Sequence record: PZ154896.1
Direction: 5' to 3' (one strand)
DNA from: a phage
Length of the DNA stretch: 64,000 nucleotides
Shown here: in pieces, positions 39,656 through 64,000 of the stretch
Position numbering within the stretch: position 1 is the first letter of the stretch
Layout: every line of letters starts with the position of its first letter
Notes under the pieces: model-generated
What the model was told of the DNA's origin: nothing
Databases searched by the model: none
What the model saw: only the letters and a program-made list of their open reading frames with translations
Position numbers and translations under genes: made by a program

Positions 39656-40756
39656 TTACGCTGTGAAGATTTTATCCCACATCGCAACAACTGCATCTCG
39701 GTTATACTTCTTCCATACTGCTTCAGCACGTTTAACTCGAGCTTCGTATGTGTCAGTGAATTCTAATACAGCTTTTGTGTAAAGCGCAACTACTTCTTTC
39801 TTAGGAGTAGAGGAATCAATTTCTACACGCACAGTATCTGGGTCGTATTCAAATGTCGCATGAGGATAATCCTTAAAAACTAACTGGATTACAGGGACAC
39901 CTTTAGAGATGGCTTCAATAGAACTATTCTCTACTGTACCTGTGTCAGGACAAGTATTAATAAGTGCTTTAGCTGTTTTAAGACGTTCCATGATTTCACT
40001 GTGTGGGGCATCAATAATAACAGGATATTTAGATGGTGGTGCCCATTTGCTTGGACAGTATCCTACACCATTTTCGCCTAGTGCTTTAATCGCTTCAAGA
40101 GCAACATCAGTACGACGCATTTTAGTGTCATAACGTTGTGCACTAATAATCAGATCAGTCGCCGGAAGAACTTCAGGTTTCTCATTCAAACAAATAACCG
40201 GATAATCTTCGGCTTCAAACAACGGATTTGCTCGCCAATAATCATAATCAATTTTGTCAGTCAGACCTGAAGTCATATGGCAATATTTACGTTCAAATTC
40301 ACGGAAGGCTTTAGTAGGAGCATAACTCTTACCACCATTCTTATGAATTTGAATAGTCTGGTCCCAAATTTGAACAATGCCACGAGATACTGGTTCAAAT
40401 GGTGTTGCCATAAAATTCTTATGAACTTTAGAGAGACCTGCGTCTTTAATTGCCTGAACGGTTAGTTTAGTCGGTTCCATAGTAACAACAAAATCGTATT
40501 CATGGATGCCGGCTAGTTCAACAATCTTACGAGCCATAGTATAACTCATACCTAGACTGAATTTAGTCAGATGACCAACAGGATGGTGTGTAACTTTCCA
40601 GTCACCAAACGTGTCATTATCAAAGCCGATATAATCAATATCAGCACCGATGGACACAAGATATTTCAACACATTTAAATGTACTGCTTCAAGGCCACCT
40701 TGTACACGGTCAGGATTAAATGGGACTGCGCGAGATGGGATAAACATAACTTTCAT
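39656..40756 (-). CDS. GT-B fold glycosyltransferase (GT4-like)
   Basis: 366 aa; N-terminal RVQGGLEAVHLNVLKYL and C-terminal TGTVENSSIEAISKGVPVI motifs typical of retaining GT4 enzymes; sits between rIIA.1 and gene 39. Confidence 0.6.
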   Translation of the reverse strand: MKVMFIPSRAVPFNPDRVQGGLEAVHLNVLKYLVSIGADIDYIGFDNDTFGDWKVTHHPVGHLTKFSLGMSYTMARKIVELAGIHEYDFVVTMEPTKLTVQAIKDAGLSKVHKNFMATPFEPVSRGIVQIWDQTIQIHKNGGKSYAPTKAFREFERKYCHMTSGLTDKIDYDYWRANPLFEAEDYPVICLNEKPEVLPATDLIISAQRYDTKMRRTDVALEAIKALGENGVGYCPSKWAPPSKYPVIIDAPHSEIMERLKTAKALINTCPDTGTVENSSIEAISKGVPVIQLVFKDYPHATFEYDPDTVRVEIDSSTPKKEVVALYTKAVLEFTDTYEARVKRAEAVWKKYNRDAVVAMWDKIFTA

Positions 40757-51930: not shown

Positions 51931-52452
51931 TTAGTAACCATTATCCTGGCGTTCAAAGTTGTGTTGGTTTTTCAGGTAATACAGTTTGAAGATTTCTTCA
52001 GCAGAAAGTCCTAGACCTTGGAACATATTTAGAACGAAATGTAGAATATCAATCATTTCAAATTTAATTTCAAGCTGGTCTTCAGGAGACAGTTCATCGA
52101 TACGACGATTTCGATATTCAGCATGTTGTGCTTTCCAAGGCTTCCATACAGAGCTAGCGGCTTTTTCACCATTGCTCATACCACCAAGTGAAGTCAGCAG
52201 TTCACGGAATTCATCATCAATATAATCTTTCTGATTACGCAGCCAATCAACAACATCACCAGCAGTGGCCAATTCATCAGGATGTTTGTTATGTTCAGGC
52301 TTGTCATTTGCCAGACGAACCTGTAAAGATTTCTGCATATCAAGCATTACCTGCAGAGGGTCTTTATCTTCATGAATCAGAGCATTAAAATAAGCTTCTT
52401 CTGCTTTATCAACACCAGAAATAAGTTGTGAACATTCGTTAAAGTGCGCCAT
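51931..52452 (-). CDS. 56: dCTPase/dUTPase gp56
   Basis: Internal ATG (MAHFNEC...) with AAAGGA RBS, 173 aa; strong match to T4 gp56 (DPLQVMLDMQ, FRELLTSLG, SPEDQLEIKFE). Confidence 0.88.
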   Translation of the reverse strand: MAHFNECSQLISGVDKAEEAYFNALIHEDKDPLQVMLDMQKSLQVRLANDKPEHNKHPDELATAGDVVDWLRNQKDYIDDEFRELLTSLGGMSNGEKAASSVWKPWKAQHAEYRNRRIDELSPEDQLEIKFEMIDILHFVLNMFQGLGLSAEEIFKLYYLKNQHNFERQDNGY

Positions 52453-55492: not shown

Positions 55493-55741
55493 TTATTCTT
55501 TTTCGCGAATAATAATTACTTGTTGAGGCTGCTGAGCAGATTTCTTTTCGGCAACGATAGACCAAATTAAAGTTCCAATCCAACCAATCATCGTCCAGTT
55601 AAAGAGTAAAGATACAAAGAAGATTGCTGTTGTGCTTTTTGTGCCACGAATAAGTGCGATTACCCAAGGCAACATGTAAATGACGATTGAACCAATACCT
55701 GCGATTAAAACCGCTACTGAACTAGCTACGAATAATTCCAT
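55493..55741 (-). CDS. small two-TM membrane protein (82 aa; Imm-like size/topology)
   Basis: Two hydrophobic helices; T4 Imm is 83 aa two-TM, but identity cannot be verified. Confidence 0.4.
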   Translation of the reverse strand: MELFVASSVAVLIAGIGSIVIYMLPWVIALIRGTKSTTAIFFVSLLFNWTMIGWIGTLIWSIVAEKKSAQQPQQVIIIREKE

Positions 55742-55802: not shown

Positions 55803-56171
55803 TTAATTAAATTTGTTTAAACGTTCAATACACTGGACGTAGTTATTTGCGATTTGTTTCTGTGTAGGCTCTTTACCGGTTGTTTCAACATAGCGAATGA
55901 ATGCGATTTCAGTAGCCTGTAGACAATGTTCTTTAACGCGCTGTTCTTTTGACATAGCTACGGTATCAGAATCACGATAACGTTGAGCATGGGCATCAGC
56001 TTGAATCATTCGATTACCTACAGTAACCGGGTCTTCCACTTCAACTTTAGGTTGGTCATACTGTTTAACATTCGGATTGTAAATCAGTTGGCCAACGTTA
56101 TTAGGGATAAAGCCGTGGGCACCACATCCGGTTAATCCAAATACCATTGCTAAAGCGATTAATTTTTTCAT
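55803..56171 (-). CDS. predicted lipoprotein (122 aa)
   Basis: Signal peptide with lipobox LTGC. Confidence 0.5.
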   Translation of the reverse strand: MKKLIALAMVFGLTGCGAHGFIPNNVGQLIYNPNVKQYDQPKVEVEDPVTVGNRMIQADAHAQRYRDSDTVAMSKEQRVKEHCLQATEIAFIRYVETTGKEPTQKQIANNYVQCIERLNKFN

Positions 56172-58285: not shown

Positions 58286-58627
58286 TTAAAAGAATTTAAA
58301 TTTTTTCTTGGTCCGTTCATTAAAAGCTTGTTGTACTTGCATTGTAACACATTTTTCAACATGTGGTGCAAGTTCTGCTTTTCTGTCCTGGTCAAGAACT
58401 GCAAAGTCCATTACGATTTTACCATCAACCCAGTCTAGTTTTGTAATATAGACTATATGATGAGAACCATCTTCAAGCGTAATCAGAATCTCTTGAATGA
58501 CATTTTCCATTGCTGAACGGATAATTTTAAGAGATTCATTAAACACTCGTTCTTTGCGAATGTCTTCCCCTTCCGAAGAAGGGGATTCATCAACGATTTC
58601 TAGATTTAAATCATCGAGATTATTCAT
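58286..58627 (-). CDS. 40: gp40 head vertex assembly chaperone (tentative)
   Basis: Internal ATG overlapping uvsX 3' end; 113 aa; T4 position between uvsX and 41. Confidence 0.5.
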   Translation of the reverse strand: MNNLDDLNLEIVDESPSSEGEDIRKERVFNESLKIIRSAMENVIQEILITLEDGSHHIVYITKLDWVDGKIVMDFAVLDQDRKAELAPHVEKCVTMQVQQAFNERTKKKFKFF

Positions 58628-59792
58628 CGAAATCTTCCATTTCGTCAAGGTCGTTTTCTATATCTGCTGCAGACGGAGCATCAGAAGTTTTAACCGGAAC
58701 TTTAGTTGTTGCTTTGCAATTAATAAGGTCGTTAACAGCATCATCAACTTCTTTAATAGAAGAGATAGCACCTAGTTTATATTTAGTTTCAATTGCATCT
58801 CGGAAAGGTTTGTGTTTAAACAACGGTCCCCAGAATTCTACACAATCAGTAGCTTTAGCACGCCATGATTTTTCTTCACGAATCATTTCGCCTGTTTCTT
58901 CGTCAAGGAATTCGCGAGCATACCACCCGGCTTTAGGCTTAACTACAAAACCAATTTCAGTTGCCATTTCTAACAAGCCACTGAATGGGTCAATACCACC
59001 ATCGAAATTAACCGTGATTGGGAAAGTAGATTTTTCTTTAACGGTGCGAGATTTTTCCGCTTTCAACGTGAAGTCATAACCGGTCAATTCTGTACCTTCT
59101 TTAACCTGACGTTTAGAGATAAAAAATACCGTGTTGGCAGAATAAAGAATACCTGTACCACCACCCATAATCTCTTTAGGATACAATCCGCCGATTTCCA
59201 TTGCTGTATGGTTGATTGCAACACATGGAATATCTTTAATAGTCAGATACGGGGTCACAATGCGGAACAGAGATTTAAGTGCCTTAGCACGAGACATATC
59301 ACCTACAACTTTCTCGTTCAATGCATCTTCGGTTTCTTTCTTAGACGCAGTATTACCGATTGAATCGATAAAGATAATAACTTTATCACCGCGTTCAATC
59401 GCGTCAAGCTGATTAGTCATATCAACTTTAAGTTGTTCGACAGATTGAATCGGAGTATGAACTACACGGTCTAAATCAACACCCATTGAACGAAAATAAG
59501 ATTCTGAAGCACCAAATTCCGAATCATAGAACAAACAAATTGCATCTTTATATTTCTTCATATATGCTGCAACCATGGTCAGTCCAAACAACGTTTTAAA
59601 GTGTTTAGAAGGAGCAGCAAAAATAGTTAAGCCTGATTGCAACCCAGCATTCAGTGCACCACCTAATGCAATATTCAACATCGGAATACGAGTAGGGACT
59701 TCATCACGATTATTAAACAGCTTAGACTTGGTCAAGTCTGCAGTCATTTTAGAAGTAGAAGCTTTAATCAGACGAGATTTTAAATCAGACAT
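58620..59792 (-). CDS. uvsX: UvsX recombinase (RecA-like)
   Basis: 390 aa; RecA-like ATPase core; T4 UvsX length and position. Confidence 0.9.
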   Translation of the reverse strand: MSDLKSRLIKASTSKMTADLTKSKLFNNRDEVPTRIPMLNIALGGALNAGLQSGLTIFAAPSKHFKTLFGLTMVAAYMKKYKDAICLFYDSEFGASESYFRSMGVDLDRVVHTPIQSVEQLKVDMTNQLDAIERGDKVIIFIDSIGNTASKKETEDALNEKVVGDMSRAKALKSLFRIVTPYLTIKDIPCVAINHTAMEIGGLYPKEIMGGGTGILYSANTVFFISKRQVKEGTELTGYDFTLKAEKSRTVKEKSTFPITVNFDGGIDPFSGLLEMATEIGFVVKPKAGWYAREFLDEETGEMIREEKSWRAKATDCVEFWGPLFKHKPFRDAIETKYKLGAISSIKEVDDAVNDLINCKATTKVPVKTSDAPSAADIENDLDEMEDFDE

Positions 59793-59891: not shown

Positions 59892-60440
59892 TTAACGAGC
59901 CCATTTGATAATTTCTGTAATCAAATAATTACGTTCGCTTGCATTAAATCCTATAACTTTGTTAGCGCCATCATGATTAAGTAATTGATACGTTTGGATT
60001 TCGTTATGAATTGCAAACTCTTCAAAATATGAAATGACTGTATTAAACCCGAATGAAGACAAAGTAATAAGGTCGTCTTCAAAACTTTCAGTCATTTCGT
60101 TACGTGTTAAAATAATTGTGAACACATCATGGTTTTGGCAAAGACGAACATAATCCTGTTCATAAACGTCGAGAACCGAGTCCGCATCTTGTCGAATACG
60201 TCCATAAACCCAGTTACTAATATATCCACGGTCTAGCAGATAAATCTTAGTAGGGTCTAAATAATTCAACATCGTTTCGAAACAGCCAACTTCATTTCGA
60301 GACTTAACATCGAAACGTCCATCAACTGTTCGTTTAGGGAAATCAATCTTTACATATCTTTCACTAATTTCCATTATGTCATTAATGAAAGTTGTTTTAC
60401 CAGCATTATCCGGGCCATCTACTAAAATAATTTTAGCCAT
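59892..60440 (-). CDS. thymidylate-kinase-family P-loop nucleotide kinase
   Basis: 182 aa; P-loop ILVDGPDNAGKTT and TMK DRx motif DRGYISNWVYG; GAGGA RBS; 1-nt gap after upstream gene. Confidence 0.65.
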   Translation of the reverse strand: MAKIILVDGPDNAGKTTFINDIMEISERYVKIDFPKRTVDGRFDVKSRNEVGCFETMLNYLDPTKIYLLDRGYISNWVYGRIRQDADSVLDVYEQDYVRLCQNHDVFTIILTRNEMTESFEDDLITLSSFGFNTVISYFEEFAIHNEIQTYQLLNHDGANKVIGFNASERNYLITEIIKWAR

Positions 60441-60441
60441 T

Positions 60442-61341
60442 TTATTCCTCGATTACGACATCTTCATATTTAGGTATATTATACGGCGAAGAAATTAAAG
60501 CATTAAAGTAGATGAACTCACCAAGACCTGGATGGAATACTTCTTCAGGATTTTCGAAATATTGAATCTTCGGTCGTCCTTTAAGAATTTGATAGTACTC
60601 AGTTTTAGTTGGTTTAAAAATTCGAATCAGCGCTTCTTCAGGATACTTATTTCTGTCGAAGCTATTATTTGGATCGGTTATATAAAGCGGTTGACCTAAT
60701 TGAATTGCACATTCAACCACTTGTTCAAAACGATAACACGGGTCACTAATTCGAAATGGATGAAAAATACCATCTAGATGAATAGGAGCCAAATCACCTA
60801 CAAGACGCTGCATGATGGAAGGACGTATAACTTTCTGGGTTACGATAATCTTATTACCATCGGCACCAGCGTTAACCAGCACTTCCTTTTGACGTTTATT
60901 CAACACAGTAGTTTGAAGTGAACGATTAACCGACAGCATGTCGGTTTTTAAGAATTCGTCAATATAAAAACGTGGTTTATTAGGGTCTGCAGTGATATTG
61001 AAATTGAATTCCACATCAAAAGCGCCGTCATATCCAGTGATATCTGTGATTAGAAAATCACAATCATAATAAGCAATTAATGAATCAACAACAAATTCAT
61101 TTTCAGACCAGAAATATTTACGAGTGTTATACGCGTTATCTTTATACCATAATGGAACAAACTTAAATTCCGGAAAAAGACGTTCACATTCTTTAATATC
61201 AGATGCATTACGTGGATATGTAATCACATCACCTGGATTAGCACGGTGCAAATGAAGTTGGAAGTTGCCATCCTTAAGGATAGCATACTGTCCAGTTTCA
61301 TAAGACCGCATACTCAAGATAGGTACGCGGAAAATAGCCAT
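60442..61341 (-). CDS. hypothetical protein (299 aa) in the beta-glucosyltransferase slot
   Basis: ORF track; TAATG overlap with upstream gp42-family gene; no resemblance to T4 beta-gt. Confidence 0.5.
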   Translation of the reverse strand: MAIFRVPILSMRSYETGQYAILKDGNFQLHLHRANPGDVITYPRNASDIKECERLFPEFKFVPLWYKDNAYNTRKYFWSENEFVVDSLIAYYDCDFLITDITGYDGAFDVEFNFNITADPNKPRFYIDEFLKTDMLSVNRSLQTTVLNKRQKEVLVNAGADGNKIIVTQKVIRPSIMQRLVGDLAPIHLDGIFHPFRISDPCYRFEQVVECAIQLGQPLYITDPNNSFDRNKYPEEALIRIFKPTKTEYYQILKGRPKIQYFENPEEVFHPGLGEFIYFNALISSPYNIPKYEDVVIEE

Positions 61342-62057
61342 TAGTCAAGGAATCCTTTAACATAATCAAAATCACGTTCAAACACATGGGCACTTACCAT
61401 GGTATGAGTATAATCACCAACTTCTACACCACATTCGTTAGCGATATAATGAAGTAATTTTCCTTGGAGATAAAAATCCAACTGCATAACAACAGCACAG
61501 TTCTGAGAACGCATATGACAGTGGGTATAAAGCTTACCATCACGAATATAATAAGTCACTGAGTCAGTACATGGATATTCAAGTGTTTCGTCCGAATCAA
61601 GCAAAGCCTGATCTGAACTTTCAAGAATTTGAAACACAACTCTTCGTGAATTAGGTTTCTCTTTAAGTTCTTTTAGAAGAGCTGGTAATTGGGCCGCAAT
61701 GCGAGGACCATAGAAAGTGTTGAAGTTCGCCGGCAAAACATCTGATTTTGGTTTAGAAATAAATTTAGCGACATTAGGATATGCCTTAAACGCTTCTTCT
61801 GCGTTGGTACCGCCAGAAATCATAAACTTCCAGAAGTCTTCGGCATATTCATAAGAGATGCGGTTAATACGTGGGTCGGTCATTTTGAATGTTGACGGGG
61901 TATCAACAACTACTGTCATAGACCCAATTTCATTACAACGTCCAATACGAGAATCAGTTACGAATTCCGGGTTTTCTAAAATTTCACGATTGACTGCTTT
62001 AAATGCGGTTTGAAAATCTGCGGCTTTGATATATTTCATTGTGTTATGTTTTCCCAT
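61341..62057 (-). CDS. thymidylate-synthase/dCMP-hydroxymethylase family enzyme, divergent gp42-like
   Basis: 238 aa; NSRR phosphate site, nucleophile Cys in YPCTDS, Asp in QLDFY at the pyrimidine-specifying position (cytosine-type) but RSQN where TS has RSCD and gp42 RSND; only ~30% identity to T4 gp42 by eye. Confidence 0.65.
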   Translation of the reverse strand: MGKHNTMKYIKAADFQTAFKAVNREILENPEFVTDSRIGRCNEIGSMTVVVDTPSTFKMTDPRINRISYEYAEDFWKFMISGGTNAEEAFKAYPNVAKFISKPKSDVLPANFNTFYGPRIAAQLPALLKELKEKPNSRRVVFQILESSDQALLDSDETLEYPCTDSVTYYIRDGKLYTHCHMRSQNCAVVMQLDFYLQGKLLHYIANECGVEVGDYTHTMVSAHVFERDFDYVKGFLD

Positions 62058-62075
62058 GTTTACCTCAATACAATT

Positions 62076-62101
62076 TATTATATACTCAATTCGTAAAGCT
62101 T
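62076..62101 (-). promoter_or_regulatory. MotA-type middle promoter for the gp42-like operon (MotA box AGCTTTA, -10 TATAAT)
   Basis: MotA-box core 62093-62099 (minus) 11 bp upstream of TATAAT at 62077-62082; ~20 nt before the ATG. Confidence 0.45.
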
Positions 62102-62178
62102 ATTTGAATTTCTTGATAATGTTGATATAACGTAAAGCTTCAGCATCGATACTTCCAAGAACACTATGAAGAAATGCA

Positions 62179-62340
62179 TCAGCGTAGTATTCCAATTGAA
62201 CAGGTTTCTTTAATCACTTTAGCCGCTTTAGTTTCAAACAGGCCCATCAGGGCCTTTTTAAGAATTTGTTCGTTGCTGTTAATTTTCGTAGTCAAAATCT
62301 CTTCATTAAGTTGGTGGTTAAAAGTTTTTCTAGAAATCAT
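62179..62340 (-). CDS. possible small protein (53 aa) coupled to the upstream Cys-rich enzyme
   Basis: Manual translation MISRKTFNHQLNEEILTTKINSNEQILKKALMGLFETKAAKVIKETCSIGILR; ATGA overlap with upstream stop; contains GGCCC-ugau-GGGCC hairpin that could instead be a terminator. Confidence 0.3.
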   Translation of the reverse strand: MISRKTFNHQLNEEILTTKINSNEQILKKALMGLFETKAAKVIKETCSIGILR

Positions 62341-63497
62341 TCCGGGTACCTCAAAGCGTCATCAGAGTTAGTTATATCAATAATAGATATAGAGTTTTCT
62401 GCTAACCCGTTTTTAGATAATTGACGTTTATAATATCTTTCACAATATGTACACGTCGTCCCGCAGATTTCATTAGCACAATCGAAATCTGGATGTCTGA
62501 ACCACCTTTTTTCTAAAAAGCCATCTAACAAAGAGGTTTCAATATTTACTGTATGTGAAAACTCTGTCTCATTTTCAAGAGTGAAAATGGTCTCTAAAGG
62601 CTTCCACAGTTCTAACAAATTACCTTCAAACTTTTCAGAAGCATAAGCTTCAAGAACTTTCAAAATGTAGTCTGTGCTACCTGTACGTCCTGAAACTTTG
62701 AATTGAGTGATACCAATATCATTATAAAGTTTCAAATCTTGAGGACGAACAAAACGAGTTCTCAACCAGTTAAATGGATCTGTATCACGAGCTTTAATAC
62801 AGTGCTGCATTGGATATCCATTTAAAGATTTGGCATCATCTACTGTAACATCGGTGCTATGGAAAATATAGCAAGAGTCACGATAACTACAATGTGTTGT
62901 ATACCCTTTACCAGCATTAGAACAGAACTCATTTACAAGAACTTCAAATATTATATTGTTCTTATTACAAAACTCTGCTGCACGCTTCAGGAAAGAAACT
63001 GAACGGTTCTTATGAATTCCGCAGCAGACCTTTTTGATATTATATTGGTCATGCAAGTATTTGATTTGAGTTACAGCATCGACATGTAGAATTGTTGAAA
63101 CTTCAATCTCAATGTCTTTATTGACTTCACGAACAATTTCCATAACAACAGGGTTAGCGATAGTAATACGCCATACGCCTATTGACCAAAGATACTGAAC
63201 ATAATCCTGAATAGCTTTCTTCTTCCACTCAACTAGTTCTCTTTTTGAACCAGGATTTATCGTGTTGAGTGTATAGTTAAAGCAAATACCTAATTCGTTA
63301 CAACGTTTAACGTAATCTTCTAACATCTTTTTGTCAACGTCAGGAAGCCTAAAATCAGGTCTGGCTGCTACAAAAGCCATTTCTCTTGTAGAGCCGTATA
63401 CTTCGTTTATCAAGCTATTAGGATAAGTTTTATTGAGCTCTACGATTTTATCAAGAAGAGCTAAATCAAAATTCGTTCCGATTTTAAAAGTATTCAT
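62337..63497 (-). CDS. Cys-rich TIM-barrel-like enzyme, tentatively U32 family (RlhA/TrhP/UbiU-like)
   Basis: 386 aa; blocks GTNFDLALLDKIVEL, NPVVMEIVREV..IEIEVS and HCSYRDSC resemble U32 motifs (AG.L..L.AAI, DPG.IMLVRE..P...IHLS, C-x6-C); extra C-terminal CX4CX3CX2C cluster. Confidence 0.45.
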   Translation of the reverse strand: MNTFKIGTNFDLALLDKIVELNKTYPNSLINEVYGSTREMAFVAARPDFRLPDVDKKMLEDYVKRCNELGICFNYTLNTINPGSKRELVEWKKKAIQDYVQYLWSIGVWRITIANPVVMEIVREVNKDIEIEVSTILHVDAVTQIKYLHDQYNIKKVCCGIHKNRSVSFLKRAAEFCNKNNIIFEVLVNEFCSNAGKGYTTHCSYRDSCYIFHSTDVTVDDAKSLNGYPMQHCIKARDTDPFNWLRTRFVRPQDLKLYNDIGITQFKVSGRTGSTDYILKVLEAYASEKFEGNLLELWKPLETIFTLENETEFSHTVNIETSLLDGFLEKRWFRHPDFDCANEICGTTCTYCERYYKRQLSKNGLAENSISIIDITNSDDALRYPE

Positions 63498-63552
63498 TTT
63501 TACATCTCGCGTTAATTGATGCGATGGTTTTTTGCAGGTCTTACTTAAATTA

Positions 63553-63954
63553 TTATAGATTCGGTTTATATGATTTAAATGTTTCGAATTCGCCTTTATT
63601 CATAAGAGCTTTGAATTCGTCAGGACGCATAGCTTTGTCGTCGATAATCCAATCATATACTGGTTTATGTGTTAGCAAATTATGGTACTTCAATCCAATG
63701 TTTGCCAAGTTCTGAATCAGACTTGGGAGAATGTCAATTGCTATACGACCAGGACCTACTGACTTCATACCGCGAGCAGTGTAAAGCGTTATTGTATGCC
63801 CTGCATCATACAGGGCATTAATGGCAGACACCATTTCGACGTCTGGTTTGAAGTTCACGTAATCACGATTGTTATTCCACTCTGTTATACAATCATCGAC
63901 ATCAAAACAAAGATTAAGCATGTTTTTTACACGGTGCATTAGATTCGTTCCCAT
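63553..63954 (-). CDS. HAD-superfamily phosphatase (small, capless)
   Basis: 133 aa; motif I FDVDDCIT, motif II ITLYTARG, motif III K (HKP), motif IV IIDDK. Confidence 0.6.
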   Translation of the reverse strand: MGTNLMHRVKNMLNLCFDVDDCITEWNNNRDYVNFKPDVEMVSAINALYDAGHTITLYTARGMKSVGPGRIAIDILPSLIQNLANIGLKYHNLLTHKPVYDWIIDDKAMRPDEFKALMNKGEFETFKSYKPNL

Positions 63955-64000
63955 TGATGAGTGATATCGCCACCGATTGGACGATAGGAAACACCAGTTT
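63955..64000 (-). CDS. 3' end of an upstream gene (partial, function unknown)
   Basis: Open reading frame continues on minus strand to window end. Confidence 0.3.

Follow-up and report, generated by a model that had tools for sequence, protein, structure and literature searches.

Upstream of uvsX, bacteriophage T4 carries the interval uvsX-segA-beta-gt-42-imm-imm.1-43. In the phage sequence PZ154896.1, of which a stretch of 64,000 nucleotides (the window) was analysed, the beta-gt/42/imm block is instead replaced by five ORFs on the minus strand, which raises the question of what pathway the replacement encodes. The initial annotation, made from the sequence alone, proposed a self-contained route to a modified pyrimidine distinct from glucosyl-hmC; the outline of a dedicated pathway of this kind stands, while the chemistry proposed for it does not.

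Identity of the block between uvsX and the window edge

The five ORFs claimed earlier are all present at the positions given, and the features of the region are as follows:

59792..58620, minus strand: uvsX, the next ORF after the kinase gene
59892..60440, minus strand: thymidylate-kinase (TMK)-like P-loop nucleotide kinase (RB69 gp45), 182 aa, 98.9% identical to RB69p045
60442..61341, minus strand: predicted GT-B-fold glycosyltransferase, 299 aa, proposed first (base-proximal) arabinosyltransferase (RB69 gp46:47), 98-99% identical to RB69p047 and p046
60478..60501, minus strand: second putative MotA-box-like motif with -10 element, GCTTTAATTTCTTCGCCGTATAAT, within the glycosyltransferase 3' end, upstream of the kinase ATG
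61341..62057, minus strand: 5-hydroxy-dCMP synthase (RB69 gp48), a flavin/O2-dependent dCMP C5-hydroxylase of thymidylate synthase (TS) fold, 238 aa, 98.7% identical to RB69p048
62077..62099, minus strand: MotA-box-like motif with -10 element, putative T4-type middle promoter, GCTTTACGAATTGAGTATATAAT, 20 nt upstream of the TS-like ATG
62179..62340, minus strand: small ORF (RB69p049 homologue), in the slot of chorismate mutase in most other T4-like phages with the cluster
62337..63497, minus strand: U32-family putative Fe-S protein (RB69 gp50), 386 aa, Pfam Peptidase_U32, E 6e-11
63553..63954 (likely true start 63939), minus strand: HAD-family phosphatase (RB69 gp51, AfhF type), 98.4% identical to RB69p051
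63939..64000, minus strand: last 20 codons of a bifunctional sugar-1-phosphate nucleotidyltransferase/arabinose-5-phosphate kinase (RB69 gp52:53, HY126 AfhE type), cut by the window edge

Most structural claims of the initial annotation were confirmed. Base 61341 belongs both to the stop codon of the TS-like gene and to the start codon of the 299-aa gene (TAATG), and the kinase ATG follows the 299-aa stop with a single base between them. The MotA-type promoter postulated before the TS-like gene has sequence-level support, with both the motif and the -10 element in place; the combined pattern has 30 matches in the window vs 6.8 expected from shuffles. The contrast between a divergent block and T4-like neighbours also holds: identity to T4 is 67.7% for uvsX, 83% for gp40 and 85.8% for gp41, as against 24.8% between the TS-like protein and T4 gp42, and the other four block proteins have no match among eight T4 proteins compared, drawn from the region of gene 41 to imm.1. 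The family calls were recovered as Pfam Thymidylat_synt (E 2e-15), Peptidase_U32 and PHROG 761 'thymidylate kinase' (E 6e-45, with the P-loop GPDNAGKT), and the HAD-like protein falls into PHROG 1238 (E 6e-43, FDVDDC motif present). A sixth, small ORF (62340..62179) sits between the U32-like and TS-like genes.

The five ORF products are 98-99% identical to RB69 gp45, gp46:47, gp48, gp50 and gp51, and therefore the phage is a Mosigvirus; megablast gives 98.6% identity with Mosigvirus genomes, and the gene order of the block matches RB69 and JK45. The initial annotation had itself allowed that these proteins might be high-identity orthologues of T-even genes, which is true with respect to the sequenced T-even-type phage RB69, but not with respect to T4, T2 or T6. 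In RB69 virion DNA, cytosine is replaced by mono- and di-arabinosylated 5-hydroxycytosine (PMC13326640). The interval thus very probably comprises the greater part of an RB69-type Mosigvirus cluster for arabinosyl-5-hydroxycytosine DNA hypermodification, with published chemistry. This cluster is already known (Lee et al., NAR 2026, PMC13326640, citing He et al. 2026 and Mahler et al. 2025), and the residual interest of the block lies in its U32-like gene.

Nucleotide and sugar branches of the pathway

The TS-like protein is ~97% identical to the structures 9IQC/9IR2/9IQU; it retains C146 and carries the three diagnostic substitutions L143E, D169N and N177D. RB69 gp48 converts dCMP to 5-hydroxy-dCMP with O2 and flavin, according to 18O2 labelling and the presence of FMN, and residue 169 is taken as diagnostic, every D169N homologue tested by Lee et al. 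having yielded 5-hydroxy-dC (PMC13326640). The initial annotation had instead postulated a gp42-like enzyme that uses methylene-tetrahydrofolate as the donor of a one-carbon unit for C5, with the kinase, phosphatase and Fe-S enzyme elaborating a hydroxymethyl-type or other C5-carbon pyrimidine. Membership in the thymidylate synthase family agrees with carbon transfer, as do the catalytic Cys146 and the dCMP-specifying Asp177, both kept as in T4 gp42, and RB69 was first reported in 2018 as arabosyl-hmC (PMC6024577). However, that assignment is termed erroneous in PMC13390438, the ether link is directly at C5 by NMR and MS, and the nucleosides of RB69 and phage NP are reported without a methylene carbon between C5 and oxygen. 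Moreover, the 98.7%-identical RB69 gp48 is an FMN-binding protein whose product, 5-hydroxy-dC (243 Da), acquires 18O from O2 without one-carbon transfer, and the window protein has the diagnostic Asn169 (PMC13326640). We consider carbon transfer very improbable and retain C5-hydroxylation.

The 299-aa protein, previously described as an orphan, is predicted to adopt the GT-B glycosyltransferase fold: its AF2 model (pLDDT 95) matches MshA (3c4q, TMq 0.63) and sucrose-phosphate synthase (6kih, TMq 0.65) in Foldseek, and the sequence matches PHROG 3891. Its gene is a single intact ORF here. The role of RB69 gp46:47 as the first arabinosyltransferase is proposed in PMC13326640. The kinase-glycosyltransferase pair is found in 15/15 T4-like loci.

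The HAD phosphatase, earlier placed in the nucleotide pathway, is now assigned to sugar activation, with conversion of Araf-1,5-bisphosphate to Araf-1-phosphate proposed by analogy to HY126 AfhF (PMC13326640); its similarity to the NCBIfam capsule-phosphatase TIGR01689 (E 4e-13) is under the curated cut-off. The start given for this gene, 63954, should most likely be moved to 63939, where the start codon shares a TAATG with the stop codon of the gene upstream. The latter encodes the nucleotidyltransferase/kinase (function from PMC13326640), whose 3' end translates to TGVSYRPIGGDITHQWERI followed by the stop codon, identical to the C-terminus of JK45 'GlmU'. The pathway is not self-contained within the block: this gene crosses the window end, the arabinose-5-phosphate isomerase gene lies beyond it, as judged from its position in JK45 and RB69, and two further components are found elsewhere in the window:

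39659..40756, minus strand: second arabinosyltransferase (RB69 gp3 homologue), between rIIA.1 and gene 39, 98.6% identical to RB69p003 (tblastn); role proposed in PMC13326640
51934..52452, minus strand: gp56 dCTPase, 97.1% identical to RB69p028 (tblastn); clears dCTP and provides dCMP, the hydroxylase substrate (RB69 annotation; PMC13326640 Table 1)

By the work of others on RB69 proteins or homologues, dCMP supplied by gp56 would be hydroxylated at C5 by the TS-fold enzyme (61341-62057) with flavin and O2, and arabinose 5-phosphate would be converted to UDP-arabinofuranose by the isomerase, the bifunctional kinase/nucleotidyltransferase and the HAD phosphatase (63553-63939). Also shown by others is a dNMP kinase of T4 type, with its gene outside the window, which would convert 5-hydroxy-dCMP to the diphosphate; formation of the triphosphate and its incorporation replacing dCTP complete the proposed pre-replicative route. 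Others propose that the GT-B enzyme (60442-61341) puts the first arabinose onto the 5-hydroxyl and that the second transferase (39659-40756) adds the next. We suggest that the TMK-like kinase (59892-60440) may act on what the hydroxylase/glycosyltransferase pair produces, and that the U32-family protein (62337-63497) could be a second, O2-independent hydroxylase with prephenate as oxygen donor, yielding the same 5-hydroxypyrimidine nucleotide during anaerobic host growth.

The U32-like gene across viral loci

We found no role for the U32-like gene in the accessible literature, outside which He et al. 2026 or Mahler et al. 2025 may assign or exclude one; in Table 1 of Lee et al. (PMC13326640), gp50 is listed as 'sugar or heterocycle reductase'. 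On comparative genomics, we regard it as somewhat probable that the protein provides an O2-independent, prephenate-dependent route to a 5-hydroxypyrimidine nucleotide, with dCMP, dUMP or DNA as candidate substrates. The protein has 10 invariant Cys, and Fe-S clusters are therefore indicated. Most GenBank annotations name such proteins 'peptidase' or 'collagenase-like protease', and these database names are all that speaks for a peptidase or collagenase; an established catalytic mechanism has never been given for U32 'peptidases', and the cysteines and the nucleotide metabolism throughout the genomic context leave this function next to no probability.

We analysed 55 viral loci with a U32 gene, 15 of them T4-like (from IMG/VR) and 40 non-T4-like, the latter with flanks of up to 10 kb on each side and neighbours counted within 5 kb. 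Typical non-T4-like orders are dCTPase-kinase-GT-U32 or GT-isomerase-NTase/kinase-U32, with the same TMK-like kinase in 23/40 loci, the same glycosyltransferase family in 19/40, the nucleotidyltransferase/kinase in 17/40 and arabinose-5-phosphate isomerase in 10/40. The D169N TS-like gene was found in none of the 40 (up to 10 kb each side). The U32 gene thus appears to occupy the place of the TS-like hydroxylase, a displacement that supports a hydroxylase function. In some non-T4-like loci it is paired with dCMP deaminase, an arrangement that would suggest uracil.

The sugar genes among these neighbours, the position of the U32 gene between sugar-activation (HAD, NTase/kinase) and nucleotide genes, and the reductase label would suit a protein of the sugar branch, acting for instance on arabinose phosphate or a nucleotide sugar. 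Yet seven dCTPase-kinase-GT-U32 loci (L010, L018, L039, L043, L049, L053, L064) keep U32 without arabinose genes in flanks of ~8-10 kb, one locus (L019) keeps it beside a different sugar pathway, adjoining UDP-galactopyranose mutase and a TAGT-like transferase, and DLP3 DNA is tri-arabinosylated without a U32 gene. L019 suggests that the gene is independent of the sugar, again in favour of a hydroxylase. Nor would a sugar-branch role account for chorismate mutase and DAHP synthase recurring beside the gene (below), and ring hydroxylation is the activity with which every characterised U32 subfamily is associated; we consider such a role possible but doubtful.

The distribution among phages differs between the two genes, which we count in favour of an O2-independent route. 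U32 was found in 222 phage records, where all host genera listed belong to Enterobacterales or are Shewanella, and neither Acinetobacter nor Rhizobium is named; the TS-like gene occurs in 57 Acinetobacter and 20 Rhizobium phage records, a correlation with host that comprises few independent lineages. The syntenic cluster of DLP3 lacks exactly the pair of U32 and the small ORF. Against this, the Dhakavirus coliphages possess the TS-like cluster but neither U32 nor chorismate mutase; thus not every E. coli phage requires the U32 gene.

Proposed prephenate link and comparison with characterised U32 proteins

Chorismate mutase and DAHP synthase supply prephenate. In Entb_45 and LC53, the U32 gene is separated from the TS-like gene by that of a Pfam-verified chorismate mutase, and the enzyme was found in 51 phage records and in 13/15 T4-like IMG/VR loci. 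Among the non-T4-like loci, the U32 gene is touched by DAHP synthase (L009, L036), by a DAHP-synthase-chorismate-mutase fusion (L048, L050-L052) or by chorismate mutase (L056, L059, L060, L062, L068). This repeated linkage supports the use of prephenate by the U32-like protein. The Mosigviruses, including the window, have no recognisable chorismate mutase, which counts against prephenate use: the ORF in its slot is unrelated by every test, with no CM_2 match and without significant resemblance to the chorismate mutases of phages. When its DNA is aligned with that of RB69 and JK45, this ORF proves to be frameshifted by an extra A near 62207, the remainder of the RB69-type frame running to 62100, and phage ST0 has an independent nonsense mutation in it.

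Known U32 substrates are 23S rRNA C2501, tRNA U34 and ubiquinone precursors, and the nucleotide-substrate reading is drawn from genomic context. Hydroxylation of host or phage RNA (as by RlhA and TrhP) or of a quinone, with an incidental position in the cluster, is therefore conceivable, but we judge it unlikely, since a DNA-modification glycosyltransferase or its kinase lies within 5 kb of U32 in 28/40 non-T4-like loci and the frequent neighbours are dCTPase-like proteins, dCMP deaminase, UDG and DNA polymerase. Also against this reading, the U32-like protein, unlike RlhA (653 aa), is only 386 aa long, with PF01136 as the only domain reported by Pfam and without the C-terminal DUF3656. In vitro hydroxylation is yet to be shown for any U32 protein (PMC10990095), and profile comparison revealed a weak relation to UbiU/UbiV; both count against the hydroxylase proposal. 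It is by likeness to RlhA, TrhP and UbiU/V that prephenate is proposed as the oxygen donor.

Gene organization of the cluster and its surroundings

Five tightly packed ORFs occupy positions 59892-63954 on the minus strand, which confirms the initial annotation in that they replace the beta-gt/42/imm block of T4. A sixth, small ORF is located between the genes encoding the U32-like protein and the thymidylate synthase-like (TS-like) protein.

Features of the cluster region
63553..63939 (longest ORF from 63954), minus strand: HAD-like protein (RB69 gp51)
62337..63497, minus strand: U32-like protein, 386 aa (RB69 gp50)
62340..62179, minus strand: sixth, small ORF (RB69p049 homologue)
62099..62077, minus strand: putative MotA-box-like motif and -10 element preceding the ATG of the TS-like gene by 20 nt, with A in place of the first T of TGCTT
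61341..62057, minus strand: TS-like protein, 238 aa (RB69 gp48)
60501..60478, minus strand: putative MotA-box-like motif and -10 element preceding the kinase gene
60442..61341, minus strand: 299-aa protein (RB69 gp46:47)
59892..60440, minus strand: P-loop kinase, 182 aa (RB69 gp45)

The junctions are as originally described: base 61341 is common to the stop codon of the TS-like gene and the start codon of the 299-aa gene (TAATG), and a single base separates the stop of the latter from the kinase start. After the kinase ORF come uvsX, gene 40 and gene 41. The longest HAD ORF begins at 63954, but a start at 63939, as in RB69, overlaps in a TAATG with the stop codon of the preceding gene for a sugar-1-phosphate nucleotidyltransferase/arabinose-5-phosphate kinase (NTase/kinase), and the HAD gene therefore probably has 128 codons rather than 133. 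The block also differs from its neighbors in divergence, as had been claimed: the flanking proteins are 68-86% identical to those of T4 and the TS-like protein only 24.8% to gp42, while the HAD, U32, 299-aa and kinase proteins found no match among the T4 proteins tested (gene 41 to imm.1). Base composition reveals no anomaly across the block.

Megablast searches found 152 phage genomes in which 80% or more of the block is covered, and 156 records match it with an identity of at least 95%, with Escherichia phage ST0, a Mosigvirus, as the top match. The gene order is the same in RB69, and the protein identities are 98.9% (gp45), 98-99% (gp47+gp46), 98.7% (gp48), 99.2% (gp50) and 98.4% (gp51). 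The block had been thought to be a self-contained pathway, which it is not: a second transferase (39659-40756) and the gp56 dCTPase (51934-52452) are encoded elsewhere in the window, and the NTase/kinase gene is cut by the window's right edge, where its last 20 codons are found. The arabinose-5-phosphate isomerase gene lies farther along in RB69 and in phage JK45, and therefore would be expected beyond the window here.

The search for middle promoters required a MotA box (TGCTTtA-like) and, 11-13 nt downstream of it, a TAnnnT -10 element. The pattern GCTTYA-N10-13-TANNNT occurs 30 times on the two strands of the window (6.8 expected from shuffles), 21 times on the minus (gene) strand, which suggests the presence of many T4-type middle promoters. 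Scans of the sequence for sigma-70 promoters and terminators gave numbers at or below chance.

The gene 40 homologue (58286-58648, minus strand) is 80% identical to RB69 gp40 and 83% to T4 gp40, with uvsX 100% and gp41 99.4% identical to RB69; judged from these identities, gene 40 is a short mosaic patch. The imm and imm.1 genes, which in T4 are next to gene 42, are found in RB69 between dmd/61.4 and sp; only their positions and lengths link two ORFs of the window (55493..55741 and 55803..56171, minus strand) to these genes. The vacated uvsX-43 interval would then be taken up by the arabinosylation genes.

Enzymes of the arabinosyl-5-hydroxycytosine pathway

The prediction of a pathway dedicated to a pyrimidine distinct from glucosyl-hmC was borne out, as the RB69 cluster makes arabinosyl-5-hydroxycytosine. 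The pathway noted from the sequence is already published (2025-2026), and its rediscovery confirms that reading of raw sequence can flag such a pathway. Cytosine in RB69 DNA is replaced by mono- and di-arabinosylated 5-hydroxycytosine (Lee et al., NAR 2026, PMC13326640), and the assignment of arabinosyl-hydroxymethylcytosine to RB69 in 2018 is now considered wrong (PMC13390438).

Among the families suggested initially, the Pfam searches recovered thymidylate synthase (PF00303, score: 56.9 bits, cut-off 24.3) for the TS-like protein and the U32 domain for the U32-like protein, but nothing significant for the kinase and the HAD protein. According to the alignment (E. coli ThyA numbering), the TS-like protein retains the catalytic C146 as well as R166 and S167, and exhibits E/N/D at positions 143/169/177 (T4 gp42: D/D/D; ThyA: L/D/N). 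It is ~97% identical to the structures 9IQC, 9IR2 and 9IQU, which are presumably those of the enzyme from coliphage HY126, whose Afh genes are equivalent to those of the RB69 gp45-gp55 cluster. In the signature of the 5-hydroxy-dCMP synthase clade Asn169 is the diagnostic residue, Asp177 confers dCMP specificity and position 143 is acidic (PMC13326640). RB69 gp48, a TS-fold enzyme, converts dCMP to 5-hydroxy-dCMP, detected by LC-MS, with O2 (18O2 labelling) and flavin; the flavin cofactor and O2 as the oxygen source are reported for both gp48 and the HY126 enzyme (PMC13326640). The catalytic Cys, the signature residues and the near-identity to the active gp48 place the TS-like protein, as a predicted 5-hydroxy-dCMP synthase, in this clade. 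The C5-carbon transfer envisaged at the outset was not borne out, as gp48 (98.7% identical) involves no one-carbon transfer. A dCMP hydroxymethylase of the T4 gp42 type was rejected in view of Asn169 and of an identity of only 24.8% over 218 residues, which also make the GenBank label "dCMP hydroxymethylase" misleading.

The 299-aa protein, originally an "orphan", is predicted to be a glycosyltransferase. Pfam, PDB-sequence and NCBIfam searches returned nothing useful for it, and only the fold search was informative: the AF2 model (pLDDT 94.9) reveals the two Rossmann-like domains of the GT-B fold, and Foldseek reported MshA (3c4q, TMq 0.63), sucrose-phosphate synthase (6kih, TMq 0.65), HepE and UDP-GlcNAc 2-epimerases, with E-values down to 8e-6 among these matches. 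By synteny, it is proposed to transfer arabinofuranose (Araf) from UDP-Araf to 5-hydroxycytosine; gp46:47 and gp3 are the proposed arabinosyltransferases of RB69. Lee et al. saw no activity of single transferases on 5hoC DNA (PMC13326640). The ORF is intact here (60442-61341, minus strand), whereas in the RB69 record (L002:6598-7498) it is divided between p046 and p047, in keeping with the statement of Lee et al. that a sequencing error in that record caused the split (PMC13326640).

The kinase matches PHROG 761 "thymidylate kinase" (E-value 6e-45), and TIGR00041 aligns with its P-loop only (15 bits, cut-off 83); Lee et al. found thymidylate kinase (TMK) folds for RB69 gp45 (PMC13326640). The HAD-like protein was examined for motif I of HAD phosphatases, DxDx(T/V); it has an FDVDDC motif near its N-terminus and matches PHROG 1238 (E-value 6e-43) and, below the cut-off of 162, TIGR01689 (49.3 bits); the HAD fold of RB69 gp51 was assigned by Lee et al. 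(PMC13326640). The initial annotation regarded it as a phosphatase of the nucleotide pathway, but by analogy with HY126 AfhF it would belong to the sugar branch: AfhF and AfhE were the models on which gp51, gp52:53 and gp55 were assigned to the synthesis of UDP-arabinofuranose (PMC13326640).

The route would begin with the conversion of dCTP to dCMP by gp56, from which the flavin enzyme would make 5-hydroxy-dCMP with O2, to be taken to the diphosphate by the dNMP kinase, all three being steps shown by others; a T4-type dNMP kinase indeed phosphorylates 5-hydroxy-dCMP (PMC13326640). As others have proposed, the diphosphate would then be converted to the triphosphate and built into DNA, and arabinose would be attached by the GT-B enzymes. 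More speculatively, the TMK-like kinase may act on a glycosylated nucleotide, because its gene is always beside that of the first transferase and is kept although the T4-type kinase accepts 5-hydroxy-dCMP. Its position beside the transferase may thus indicate that the nucleotide receives the first sugar, which Lee et al. could not distinguish from addition on DNA (PMC13326640).

The U32-like protein as a candidate anaerobic hydroxylase

RB69 gp50 appears in the work of Lee et al. as a table entry only, "sugar or heterocycle reductase"; the work on RlhA and TrhP is cited there (PMC13326640). The U32 family members RlhA, TrhP and UbiU/UbiV are required for ho5C2501 in 23S rRNA, for ho5U34 in tRNA and for anaerobic ubiquinone hydroxylation, respectively, all in O2-independent, Fe-S-dependent and prephenate-dependent pathways; for UbiU/V, the donor of oxygen has been shown to be prephenate. 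Residues E161, C169 and C176 of RlhA and E162, C170 and C177 of TrhP are essential for hydroxylation. Hydroxylase activity has been reconstituted in vitro for no U32 protein (PMC10990095). We lean towards the prediction that gp50 is an O2-independent, prephenate-dependent C5-hydroxylase of a pyrimidine deoxynucleotide; its substrate could be dCMP, dUMP or DNA.

The protein possesses the U32 domain and fold. Ten Cys residues are invariant among 28 homologues down to 46% identity, including those of the tail C340-x4-C345-x3-C349-x2-C352, which is suggestive of [4Fe-4S] binding. Invariant in the same 28 sequences are also E190, F191, C203 and C209, with H202 nearly so. Since a profile compared with single E. 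coli UbiU and UbiV sequences was too weak for Cys mapping, a HMMER family profile was compared with the four E. coli U32 proteins. It aligned vYrdsCYilHa with RlhA AYSGQC176YISHA, and hence the phage segment C203-SYRDS-C209-YIFH with the RlhA stretch that bears C169 and C176. C209 thereby corresponds to RlhA C176, while C203 can be matched to C169 from the spacing within the motif, shorter by one residue; E190 would correspond to E161, as we infer from the pattern across an insertion. The same profile aligned FKVSGRTG with the FKIEGR motif. The NCBIfam UbiU score is 19.4 bits (cut-off 440), and hhalign gave an E-value of 0.01 over 86 columns for UbiU and nothing for UbiV. Searches of PDB sequences found no match. 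On these scores the phage proteins are a subfamily separate from UbiU, UbiV, RlhA and TrhP.

Analyses of genomic context point to a link with prephenate. In Entb_45 (Enterobacter) and LC53 (Serratia) the U32 and TS-like genes flank a small gene that encodes a chorismate mutase (CM; CM_2 scores: 40.9 and 44.6 bits, respectively; cut-off 27). CM relatives were found in 51 phage records from at least a dozen host genera (Shewanella and members of the Enterobacterales), and in nearly every one of these records the matched region abuts or overlaps an annotated TS-like or U32 gene. CM is present in 13 of 15 T4-like IMG/VR loci, and CM or DAHP synthase adjoins the U32 gene in the same number of them and in 11 of 40 other loci, which include near-duplicates and incomplete contigs with flanks of up to 10 kb on each side. 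In two non-T4-like loci (L009, L036) a free-standing, N-terminally short DAHP synthase gene lies immediately downstream of the U32 gene; in five loci of jumbo phages, of which three or more are near-identical, CM follows it. In four further contigs, two of them near-identical, a fused DAHP synthase-CM gene precedes the U32 gene by no more than ~600 bp, and no gene was detected in between.

DAHP synthase-CM fusions on uncultured phage contigs
L048:8399-9430
L051:7290-8354
L052:8323-9384
L050:3-968

The DAHP_synth_1 neighbors could have been KDO8P synthases, users of arabinose 5-phosphate, but this was rejected since the NCBIfam scores clearly favor DAHP synthase (L009 and L036: ~220-237 vs ~60 bits; the four fusions: ~125-163 vs ~30-52); moreover, four of the six DAHP synthases are fused to CM. 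Thus, four architectures (T4-like CM, DAHP synthase, the fusion and jumbo-phage CM) put a prephenate-supply enzyme beside the U32 subfamily, where it may raise the supply of prephenate. In the literature searched, shikimate-pathway enzymes beside phage DNA-modification genes are apparently undescribed.

The Mosigvirus ORF that occupies the CM slot of the other genera appears to be decaying. The RB69p049 homologue (62100-62340, minus strand) is frameshifted by an extra A near 62207 and encodes 53 aa instead of 79, and in ST0, the closest relative, codon 48 of the same ORF has independently undergone a CAA-to-TAA nonsense mutation. The possibility that it is a diverged AroQ CM (defined by a CM_2 domain with equivalents of Arg11, Arg28, Lys39, Glu52 and Gln88) was dropped: CM_2 did not match the small ORFs of the window, RB69 or JK45, an alignment of 15 phage CM sequences and BLAST gave nothing significant, and tblastn with two phage CMs found none anywhere in the window. 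As the ORF in this slot has no detectable relation to CMs, Mosigviruses would need prephenate from the host.

Another line of evidence is displacement. No TS-like gene with the D169N substitution was found in the 40 non-T4-like U32 loci within up to 10 kb on each side (the sole TS gene near such a U32 gene, in L038, is an ordinary dUMP-type thymidylate synthase). Within 5 kb of U32, these loci encode the kinase (23), the glycosyltransferase of PHROG 3891 (19), the NTase/kinase (17) and the isomerase (10), typically in the orders dCTPase-like, kinase, transferase, U32 or transferase, isomerase, NTase/kinase, U32. U32 therefore occupies the place that the TS-like hydroxylase has in DLP3 and RL38J1 (phages of Acinetobacter and Rhizobium) and in Dhakavirus. 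A role of U32 in arabinose metabolism is argued against by several U32 loci without sugar-activation genes nearby and by one in which the kinase-transferase-U32 order is kept beside UDP-galactopyranose mutase and a TAGT-like transferase.

The U32 gene was found in 222 phage records, with all listed host genera belonging to Enterobacterales or Shewanella; Acinetobacter and Rhizobium are not named among the matches, and the TS-like gene is present in 57 Acinetobacter and 20 Rhizobium phage records. The syntenic cluster of DLP3 is missing exactly the pair of U32 and the small ORF. A strict rule that phages of facultative anaerobes always have U32 was dropped because the Dhakavirus coliphages do not; the correlation is thus one-directional and rests on few independent lineages. 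In Dhakavirus IME341 (L016, 4439-8589) the NTase/kinase, HAD, TMK-like kinase, TS-like and glycosyltransferase genes appear in a different order, with no U32, CM or annotated arabinose-5-phosphate isomerase gene in this interval. Another contig encodes two U32 paralogues (L005:8001-9098 and L005:13227-14360), a dockerin-bearing GH43 protein and, near U32, radical-SAM/SPASM, NT5C, deoxynucleoside kinase, a PnuC-like transporter, a nucleoside deoxyribosyltransferase-like protein and methyltransferases; this gene set may represent a salvage-type route to a modified nucleoside.

Altogether, RB69-like phages may possess two routes to 5-hydroxy-dCMP, an aerobic one with the flavin TS-fold enzyme and an anaerobic one with the U32 Fe-S enzyme, and would thereby resemble their host with its pairs TrhO/TrhP and UbiIHF/UbiUV. 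In the step proposed in this work, which we regard as somewhat better than an even guess, the U32 enzyme would oxidize the pyrimidine ring at low oxygen, with the hydroxyl coming from prephenate, and yield the same nucleotide. In many uncultured non-T4-like phages U32 may be the sole hydroxylase that feeds the same transferase-kinase pair. In the literature searched, no paper was found that links U32 proteins to phage DNA, but the idea may be in print already. If it is true, this would be the first U32 enzyme with a free nucleotide as its substrate, and the first on the side of DNA instead of RNA, and a small soluble model for a family with no hydroxylase activity reconstituted in vitro. It would explain how the DNA of gut coliphages is fully modified without oxygen, with a bearing on phage therapy and on evasion of restriction and CRISPR in the intestine; phages would boost prephenate, a host intermediate of aromatic amino acid synthesis, for the chemistry of their DNA; and many uncultured phages without the TS-like marker would be added to those in which 5-hydroxypyrimidine DNA is sought.

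Comparison with known systems

The closest system is the RB69 gp45-gp55 cluster (PMC13326640), with the same genes and order in the same host group and genus (Mosigvirus) and 98-99% protein identity. The differences are the intact glycosyltransferase ORF (split in the RB69 record), the frameshifted ORF49 homologue and the neighboring gp40 with only 80% identity; no functional difference between the two clusters is expected. The glucosyl-hmC system of T4 (gp56, gp42, gp1, alpha- and beta-glucosyltransferases) follows the same logic of a dCTPase, a TS-fold enzyme acting at C5 of dCMP, kinases, incorporation and glycosylation, and is encoded at the same chromosomal position between uvsX and gene 43 (in T4: uvsX-segA-beta-gt-42-imm-imm.1-43). 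Here, however, a hydroxyl rather than a hydroxymethyl group would be added, with flavin and O2 instead of folate, by an enzyme with D169N and 24.8% identity to gp42; the sugar would be arabinofuranose instead of glucose, its activation is phage-encoded, the GT-B transferase is unrelated, and the TMK-like kinase and U32 genes are extra. DLP3 (gp76-gp83) and RL38J1 (PMC13326640) have in common with this cluster the triad of D169N TS-like hydroxylase, glycosyltransferase and TMK-like kinase, and DLP3 also the HAD, NTase/kinase and isomerase genes. Unlike this cluster, both lack U32 and the small ORF/CM; DLP3 has two more transferases, and RL38J1 uses galactofuranose and glucose.

Compared with the known U32 proteins, those of phages form a distinct, phage-borne and remote subfamily (hhalign E-value 0.01 to UbiU), whose motif has an insertion and C-x5-C instead of C-x6-C, and whose tail (C-x4-C-x3-C-x2-C) is peculiar to it. 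A deoxynucleotide is presumed to be its substrate, whereas RlhA, TrhP and UbiU/V act on RNA or quinone. Nonetheless, the phage proteins share with RlhA, TrhP, UbiU and UbiV the domain and fold of the family, the conserved pair of Cys in the U32 motif and a KIEGR-like motif, and RlhA likewise has extra C-terminal Cys residues. The linkage of phage U32 to prephenate supply is a further point of resemblance. O2-dependent and U32 routes exist side by side in TrhO/TrhP and in UbiI/H/F versus UbiU/V, as proposed here, and RlhA and TrhP are required for hydroxylation of pyrimidines at C5, the same chemistry that would be needed in these phages.
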